36,524 nucleotides of DNA from a virus (lineage: Duplodnaviria; Heunggongvirae; Uroviricota; Caudoviricetes). The notes beneath the pieces were generated by a model. That model was given only the letters and a program-made list of their open reading frames with translations, was not told the DNA's origin and searched no databases. This document shows positions 13,848-14,681 of the stretch, in pieces; positions within the stretch are counted from its first letter, which is position 1, and each line of letters starts with the position of its first letter. The position numbers and the translations under genes were made by a program. The stretch lies in IMG/VR virus record IMGVR_UViG_2778261068_000005; one strand, written 5' to 3'.

Positions 13848-14681
13848 ATGACAGTGAAAGCAAAGCGTTTTCGCATCGGGGTGGAAGGTGCCACCACCGA
13901 CGGACGCGAAATCCAGCGTGAATGGCTGGAACAGATGGCAGCCAGCTACAACCCAGCGGTGTATACCGCGCTGATTAACCTTGAGCACATCAAGTCTTAT
14001 CTGCCGGATAGCACCTTTAACCGCTACGGCAAGGTGACGGCGCTGTTTGCTGAAGAAATCACGGAAGGTCCGCTGGCAGGCAAGATGGCGCTGTATGCCG
14101 ACGTTGAGCCAACGGAGTCCTTGGTGGAACTGGTGAAAAAAGGCTAGAAATTATTCACCTCTATGGAAGTCAGCCCGAAGTTCGCTGATACGGGCAAAGC
14201 CTACCTGGTCGGCCTGGCTGCCACTGATGACCCTGCCAGTCTGGGTACGGAAATGCTGACATTCAGCGCCAGTGCAGCCCATAACCCACTGGCAAACCGC
14301 AAGCAGAATCCTGCCAATCTCTTTACCGCTGCAGAGGAAACGGTGATCGAACTGGAAGAAATCCGGGACGATAAACCGTCCCTGTTTGCCCGTGTCACGG
14401 CGCTGTTTACCAAAAAAGAGCAGTCCGATGACGCCCGGTTCTCTGATGTGCATAAGGCCGTGGAGCTGGTCGCCACTGAGCAGCAGAACCTGAGCGCACG
14501 CACCGAAAAATCCCTGTCTGAGCAGGAAGAACGCCTGTCTGAGCTGGAGACAGCCCTGCAGGCACAGCAAACCGCCTTTAACGAACTGGTGGACAAGCTG
14601 AGTCATGAAGACAGCCGCCAGGACTACCGCCAGCGTGCAACAGGCGGTAACGCCCCCGTTGACACTCTGACCAATTGCTGA
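13848..14681 (+). pseudogene. O: Capsid scaffolding protein/protease (gpO) interrupted by an in-frame TAG at 14145-14147
   Basis: N-terminal part (FRIGVEGATTDGREI) and C-terminal part ([15 protein letters not shown]) are both gpO-like, in the same frame, separated only by TAG plus 5 codons. Confidence 0.8.

Follow-up and report, generated by a model that had tools for sequence, protein, structure and literature searches.

The P2-like prophage analysed here is very probably defective, having been inactivated recently, as a first step of decay, by a spontaneous C-to-T nonsense change in its capsid scaffold gene O. The TAG in this gene is a genuine, reproducible and very rare nonsense allele, and a second amber codon interrupts the replication gene A of the same prophage. 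The window, by which we mean the whole stretch of 36,524 nucleotides under analysis (IMG/VR record IMGVR_UViG_2778261068_000005), had been annotated in a first pass that offered four alternatives for gene O: a head-defective or cryptic prophage, an amber-suppressing host, two separately functioning halves, or a sequencing error. The first of these is the best supported, and the amber in gene A strengthens it further.

The window holds a complete P2-like (Peduoviridae) prophage, and its nearest phage records are Peduoviridae. The gene set was judged gene by gene using tblastn against the annotated prophage of E. coli F637 at the same ybjL site, and the P2 set and order are present (int, C, cox, A, Q, P, O, N, M, L, X, Y, K, lysABC, R, S, V, W, J, I, fibre, FI, FII, E, T, U, D and ogr). 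The head genes share 96-99% DNA identity with Escherichia phage 500465-1 (Wadgaonvirus), Klebsiella Kapieceevirus phages and E. coli prophages, and related prophages occur in about 1,080 of 5,426 complete E. coli genomes. The right end of the window (33736-36524) is host DNA carrying ybjL, ybjM and grxA. This flank matches the E. albertii type strain at 99.5% identity, compared with about 90% for E. coli and other Escherichia species, which identifies the host as E. albertii. Integration adjoins ybjL, on the same side and at the same site as the prophages of E. coli F637 and many other E. coli. Since the window begins at the integrase end, a search for att repeats inside it found none.

Some cargo and variable segments were noted along the way. 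A 311-aa FRG-domain (PF08867) gene at 19673-20608 on the minus strand sits between tail genes S and V and matches the PADLOC candidate defence family PDC-S15 (E = 6e-31); it is cargo in a variable spot, and neither the E. coli F637 prophage nor the related prophage L007 (see below) has a gene there. A further variable cargo region (7986-10853) lies between a DinI-like gene and the portal gene and contains a DUF8087 gene, a 331-aa protein with neither a PADLOC match nor a recorded Pfam family, an HNH_2 nuclease (weak PADLOC HNH matches) and a 98-aa ORF; at this place relatives carry retron-type reverse transcriptases, AIPR, HipA plus HIRAN, or a DprA-like protein plus a phosphoribosyltransferase. 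In 24129-26365 an invertase-type recombinase gene (25814-26365) stands beside duplicated, oppositely oriented genes for a gp53-like tail-fibre tip and for tail-fibre assembly, an arrangement that suggests, by analogy with Mu (Gin) and P1 (Cin), a host-range segment that can invert.

Gene O and the features discussed for it are as follows:

13848..14681, plus strand: gene O, capsid scaffold and maturation serine protease, with one in-frame amber (PF05929, P2 alignment, synteny)
13848..14144, plus strand: N-terminal 99 codons of gpO, holding the beginning of the protease domain with Asp18 and His47 (ORF, alignment, Pfam)
14121, plus strand: synonymous C-to-T change, CTG to TTG (Leu92), at the inner C of the Dcm site CCTGG (relatives)
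14145..14147, plus strand: amber codon 100, from CAG (Gln) (sequence, relatives, P2)
14148..14162, plus strand: five codons (K L F T S) in neither ORF, the last encoding Ser105 (P2 alignment)
14163..14681, plus strand: C-terminal 172 codons of gpO, from Met106 to the natural stop (ORF, alignment, Pfam)

The assignment to gpO, proposed in the first pass, was confirmed by profile matches and by alignment to P2. Against Pfam PF05929 (Phage_GPO; cut-off 33.6 bits) the N-terminal piece covers profile positions 2-94 with 154 bits and the C-terminal piece positions 102-265 with 189 bits, and the protein with the Gln restored reaches 378 bits over positions 2-265 of 268. Its protein matches the uninterrupted gpO of E. 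coli F637 (277 aa) at 98% identity, apart from the one stop. As in P2, the gene is placed between the divergent terminase gene P and the capsid gene N, in a head module of P2-type order in which O runs divergent from P (terminase) and Q (portal) and is followed by N, M and L. The window gene thus shares with P2 gpO the family, the gene position, an end-to-end alignment, matching Asp, His and Ser codons and a C-terminal tail of the form ...ATGG....TNC, but amino acid identity is only about 46% (130/285 aligned columns) and the frame is broken at the equivalent of Gln102. At the DNA level it groups with a Wadgaonvirus- and Kapieceevirus-like set at 96-99% identity. The single uninterrupted frame of about 277-284 codons expected for the gpO family is absent, with TAG at codon 100; gene O is annotated as one intact gene in all related records among the matches listed, and it is intact in all of about 108 relatives that were fetched regardless of the stop.

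The TAG lies in frame at 14145-14147 on the plus strand, where the local reading is GTG AAA AAA GGC TAG AAA TTA TTC ACC TCT ATG GAA. The program-made ORF list gives 13848..14147 (99 codons plus TAG) and 14163..14681 (172 codons plus stop) in one shared frame, separated beyond the TAG by the five sense codons AAA TTA TTC ACC TCT before the ATG, exactly the arrangement described in the first pass. In all four close relatives that were aligned the codon is CAG, and among 69 aligned relatives position 14145 is C in 67 and T in 2. In an end-to-end alignment Gln102 of P2 gpO, likewise encoded by CAG, falls on the TAG. Relatives and P2 both carrying CAG, the TAG is a derived C-to-T transition at 14145 that changed Gln to amber, and the earlier proposal of a Gln codon at this place is borne out by the four close relatives and by P2 alike. 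The sequence 3' of the TAG is ordinary conserved coding sequence, the same as in CAG alleles. The synonymous change at 14121, which precedes the amber by 24 nt, serves as a haplotype marker of the window and occurs in 2 of 75 relatives. Gene O is a pseudogene unless its stop is suppressed.

The position of the stop within the protein is informative. P2 gpO belongs to MEROPS family S73, and its Asp19 and His48 were reportedly identified as catalytic residues by Chang et al. in 2009. In the window D18 (13899-13901), H47 (13986-13988) and S105 (14160-14162) align with D19, H48 and S107 of P2, so that codon 100 falls between His47 and Ser105, and the Ser105 codon (TCT) is the last of the five gap codons that neither ORF includes. 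The C-terminal piece holds what remains of the protease domain, then the middle region and finally the scaffolding domain at the C terminus. In P2 gpO the protease comprises residues 1-141 and acts on gpN, on gpO itself and presumably also on gpQ, and an O(S107A) mutant is protease-deficient; residues 195-284 are the scaffold needed for procapsid assembly, and without gpO neither P2 nor P4 forms viable virions (PMC7552001). Translation of the window gene would end after 99 residues, so that the equivalents of Asp18 and His47 would be made but the nucleophile Ser105 would not, and re-initiation at Met106 would yield a scaffolding-domain fragment that lacks Ser105. As every possible fragment is without a complete protease, no product would be able to make the maturation cleavages of capsid protein, portal and scaffold.

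The second amber was found in gene A:

4794..7208, plus strand: gene A, replication initiator endonuclease (gpA homologue), 804 codons with an amber inside (tblastn against F637)
6990..6992, plus strand: second amber, gene A codon 733, from CAG (CAG in the F637 reference)

In tblastn, gene A and its counterpart in the E. coli F637 prophage share 98.8% identity along 804 aa, interrupted by one stop, and PF05840 (Phage_GPA) was assigned to the called 732-aa product. Position 6990 is C in 19 relatives. One relative, L024, had to be discarded as a second carrier: its apparent amber is a gap artefact of the alignment, and it reads CGT CTG. The stop removes the last 71 residues of gpA, a tail that is conserved in 58 phage records with query coverage of at least 80%, out of 67 that matched, and by virtue of this conservation the truncation is probably harmful. 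The mutated base is the inner C of a Dcm site, which became T (GCCAGG to GCTAGG). Conversions of CCAGG to CTAGG are amber hot spots caused by deamination of 5-methylcytosine at Dcm sites, as in lacI. Both the gene A amber (6990) and the change at 14121 match this pattern, each at the inner C of CCWGG, and we infer deamination as the chemical cause. The gene O amber differs: its context, GGC[C>T]AGAAA, lies outside any CCWGG site (GGCCAGA is not a Dcm site), so that a Dcm hot spot is ruled out there and the mechanism does not explain this amber.

All genes with an F637 counterpart are full length and stop-free in the gene-by-gene comparison, except O and A. Over the covered 15.6 kb, rare substitutions (those found in at most 2 relatives) comprise 68 synonymous, 28 nonsynonymous and 2 nonsense changes. 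The predominance of synonymous changes speaks for strong purifying selection, and the prophage therefore was functional until recently, with the two ambers arriving late. In the scenario that we favour, the spontaneous change of gene O codon 100 would have removed gpO function, and the second CAG-to-TAG change, at the Dcm deamination hot spot, would truncate the replication protein gpA; the predicted outcome is a recently inactivated prophage with neither normal replication nor mature heads. The losses of function are read from sequence here. Decaying or domesticated prophages inactivated by point mutations offer a close parallel, being otherwise complete, with one or two inactivating changes and a signature of purifying selection. 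The window differs from typical decayed prophages in having no deletions or insertion sequences yet, which places it at the earliest recognisable stage of decay. Among fetched relatives, head genes are disrupted at about 1% per gene (L 1/83, N 1/60, P 0/93, M 0/85). One such relative, L020 (IMGVR_UViG_2826321507_000002), has a stop at codon 47 of the head-completion gene L, and another, L058, has a frameshift in gene A; these two disruptions show a background of roughly 1% disrupted genes.

The rarity of the TAG allele was assessed with a 55-nt megablast query centred on the T, in which each 28-nt seed contains the T so that CAG alleles cannot seed, and in IMG/VR with a degenerate codon-level pattern; CAG controls were run for complete E. 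coli genomes, phage records and IMG/VR. The allele was found neither in complete E. coli genomes (CAG control: 1069 places in 1040 genomes) nor in phage records (49 records) nor in IMG/VR (at least 120), and the JGI metagenome contigs and the GTDB species genomes likewise returned none.

An exact-sequence look-up of the 99-aa product in a very large assembly collection listed it in 40 blocks. Among the ten look-up places listed, TAG is present in L005, L006, L007 and L009 only. The first two belong to the window's own lineage. The TAG of L007 (ERR7226545) is located centrally on a contig of 73 kb, and the prophage around it shares about 96% identity with the window; L009, from a metagenome, is a weaker case, with its TAG 27 nt from a contig end that carries a mismatch. 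The other six places drop out: in L008, L010, L012 and L014 the contigs merely end at codon 99 (...AAAGGC) and give no evidence for TAG, and in L011 and L013 they end with CA two bases past codon 99, which is wild type. Contig breaks at codon 99 were probably picked by the look-up itself and may represent branch points of the assembly graph at which two P2-like prophages of one genome part ways.

In gene O the window and L007 differ at 23 sites, and their nearest CAG alleles are 7 and 12 differences away, respectively. Spread of the TAG by recombination or descent is thereby ruled out, and since each prophage is nearer to a CAG allele than to the other, the two ambers arose independently. To judge from these haplotypes, L007 clearly represents an independent recurrence on a different gene O background, and L009 perhaps a second one. 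As the look-up returns only this truncation and the collection is enormous, one or two recurrences fit sporadic mutation. The recurrence at codon 100 could nevertheless hint at tolerance or at a mutational hot spot, and we count it against our preferred explanation. The first pass had named homologues split at the same point as an observation that would speak against a simple amber mutation. Such homologues exist in the literal sense (L007 solid, L009 weaker), but a conserved split arrangement does not, the cases being rare recurrences.

Two ambers in one prophage raise the question of whether the E. albertii host might carry a Gln-inserting amber suppressor (a supE-type allele of glnV or glnX), which would restore both A and O at reduced yield. 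Both premature stops are indeed amber and both replace Gln, there is no ochre, opal or frameshift, and no other gene is disrupted. Marshall and Levy are said to have described amber suppressors in natural coliform isolates in 1980, which would lend this idea some credit, but suppressor alleles are uncommon in wild strains, and our search of the literature on the natural prevalence of amber suppressors yielded nothing useful. No tRNA gene occurs within the window, so a suppressor tRNA inside the prophage is rejected. The coincidence of two ambers is also less striking than it seems: CAG makes up 46% of the stop targets reachable by GC-to-AT changes in the prophage, amber outcomes 65%, and two CAG-to-TAG events would therefore be expected by chance at about 0.2, and more often still given that one of the two ambers lies at a Dcm hot spot. 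We consider a suppressor host very unlikely. In E. coli K-12 the glnV-glnX region is about 190 kb from ybjL, past the reach of the 260-kb contig on that side. If such a host were real, the prophage would be inducible only there, as a natural suppressor-dependent, host-locked temperate phage. Classical amber (conditional-lethal) mutants in head genes, such as the P2 O amber mutants, were used in studies of morphogenesis, and the likeness is that a nonsense codon in gene O blocks head formation without a suppressor and is rescued by a Gln-inserting one. The present case differs from these mutants in being a natural E. albertii prophage, in having an amber in gene A as well and in being known from its sequence alone.

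The idea that the two halves of gpO function separately is contradicted by our data. The ATG at 14163 is the conserved internal Met106 (Met108 in P2), which follows the nucleophile serine, and not a new start. No GGAG precedes it, and the starts of O, N, M, L and X each have GGAG 8-12 nt upstream. The codon for Ser105 belongs to neither ORF, and the halves therefore could not rebuild the protease even with re-initiation. Moreover, none of more than 1,200 relatives has the split form. Nor could the A6 run immediately before the stop (GTGAAAAAAGGC) rescue the gene by frameshifting or transcriptional slippage, because both ORFs share one frame and a shift cannot rejoin them. The conservation of TAG at codon 100 that programmed read-through would lead one to expect was not found among relatives (0 against the CAG counts given above). 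The gene O split is neither a two-gene arrangement nor a recoding site.

A weaker form of the suppressor idea is leaky expression, in which re-initiation at Met106 would supply a scaffold-only protein and low-level read-through of UAG, with an A after the stop, would add some full-length protease-scaffold, the two in a proportion that still works. Ribosomes that terminate at the stop could reach the ATG, which is only 15 nt further on, the scaffolding domain is retained in the C-terminal fragment, and the same split is seen again in L007. The scheme also recalls lambda C/Nu3, where a protease-scaffold fusion is accompanied by an abundant, separately started, same-frame scaffold-only protein. 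In lambda, however, the internal start is conserved and functional and the long form contains no stop, whereas in the window the split is rare, a ribosome-binding site is missing and the nucleophile codon falls outside both products. Each of the objections to functional halves, namely the ATG without a Shine-Dalgarno sequence, its nature as a conserved internal codon and the lack of the split in those many relatives, counts here too; gene A is broken as well, and basal UAG read-through in E. coli amounts to only about 0.01-0.1%. Leaky expression that keeps gene O at work is thus highly improbable.

The last alternative of the first pass, a mistake of sequencing or assembly that hides a true CAG, is hardly credible. 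The window from 3848 to 24681 is identical, without a mismatch, to contig PTRR01000007.1 of assembly GCA_002965665.1, and the Logan assembly of SRR9671737 shows the same TAG in the same prophage, with one difference in 17 kb (at 19314). The base call is hence reproduced in two separately built assemblies, and as these share the T and differ once elsewhere, they are not one consensus. It is true that a single base is at stake and that SRR9671737 is perhaps not an independent isolate, but consensus mistakes are rare at ordinary non-homopolymer positions. Literature searches for GCA_002965665.1 and for the run accessions returned nothing.

Finally, a deliberate or laboratory-selected double-amber phage (obtained for example by chemical mutagenesis) that was lysogenised into the strain might account for two ambers in essential genes and for private changes rich in GC-to-AT transitions (34 of 54 strictly private changes), but we dismiss it as extremely improbable, given a host that is E. 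albertii by its flank in what seems to be a surveillance-type draft assembly, private changes that are mostly synonymous and spread genome-wide like natural divergence, the independent natural recurrence in L007, and the normal bacterial mutation bias towards GC-to-AT.

Recent inactivation by spontaneous nonsense mutation remains the explanation that we prefer. It is ordinary prophage decay of an already known kind, with nothing new beyond annotation, and wider interest would arise only if the host carried an amber suppressor. For annotation it means that genes O and A should be described as pseudogenes with internal stops and gene O not as two separate genes, and that the prophage should be scored as probably defective despite its complete look, a defect that tools predicting intactness would miss. 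For the biology of P2-like prophages it provides a clean example of the earliest prophage decay, in which nonsense point mutations, including one at a Dcm hot spot, arose in a genome that had otherwise been under purifying selection.
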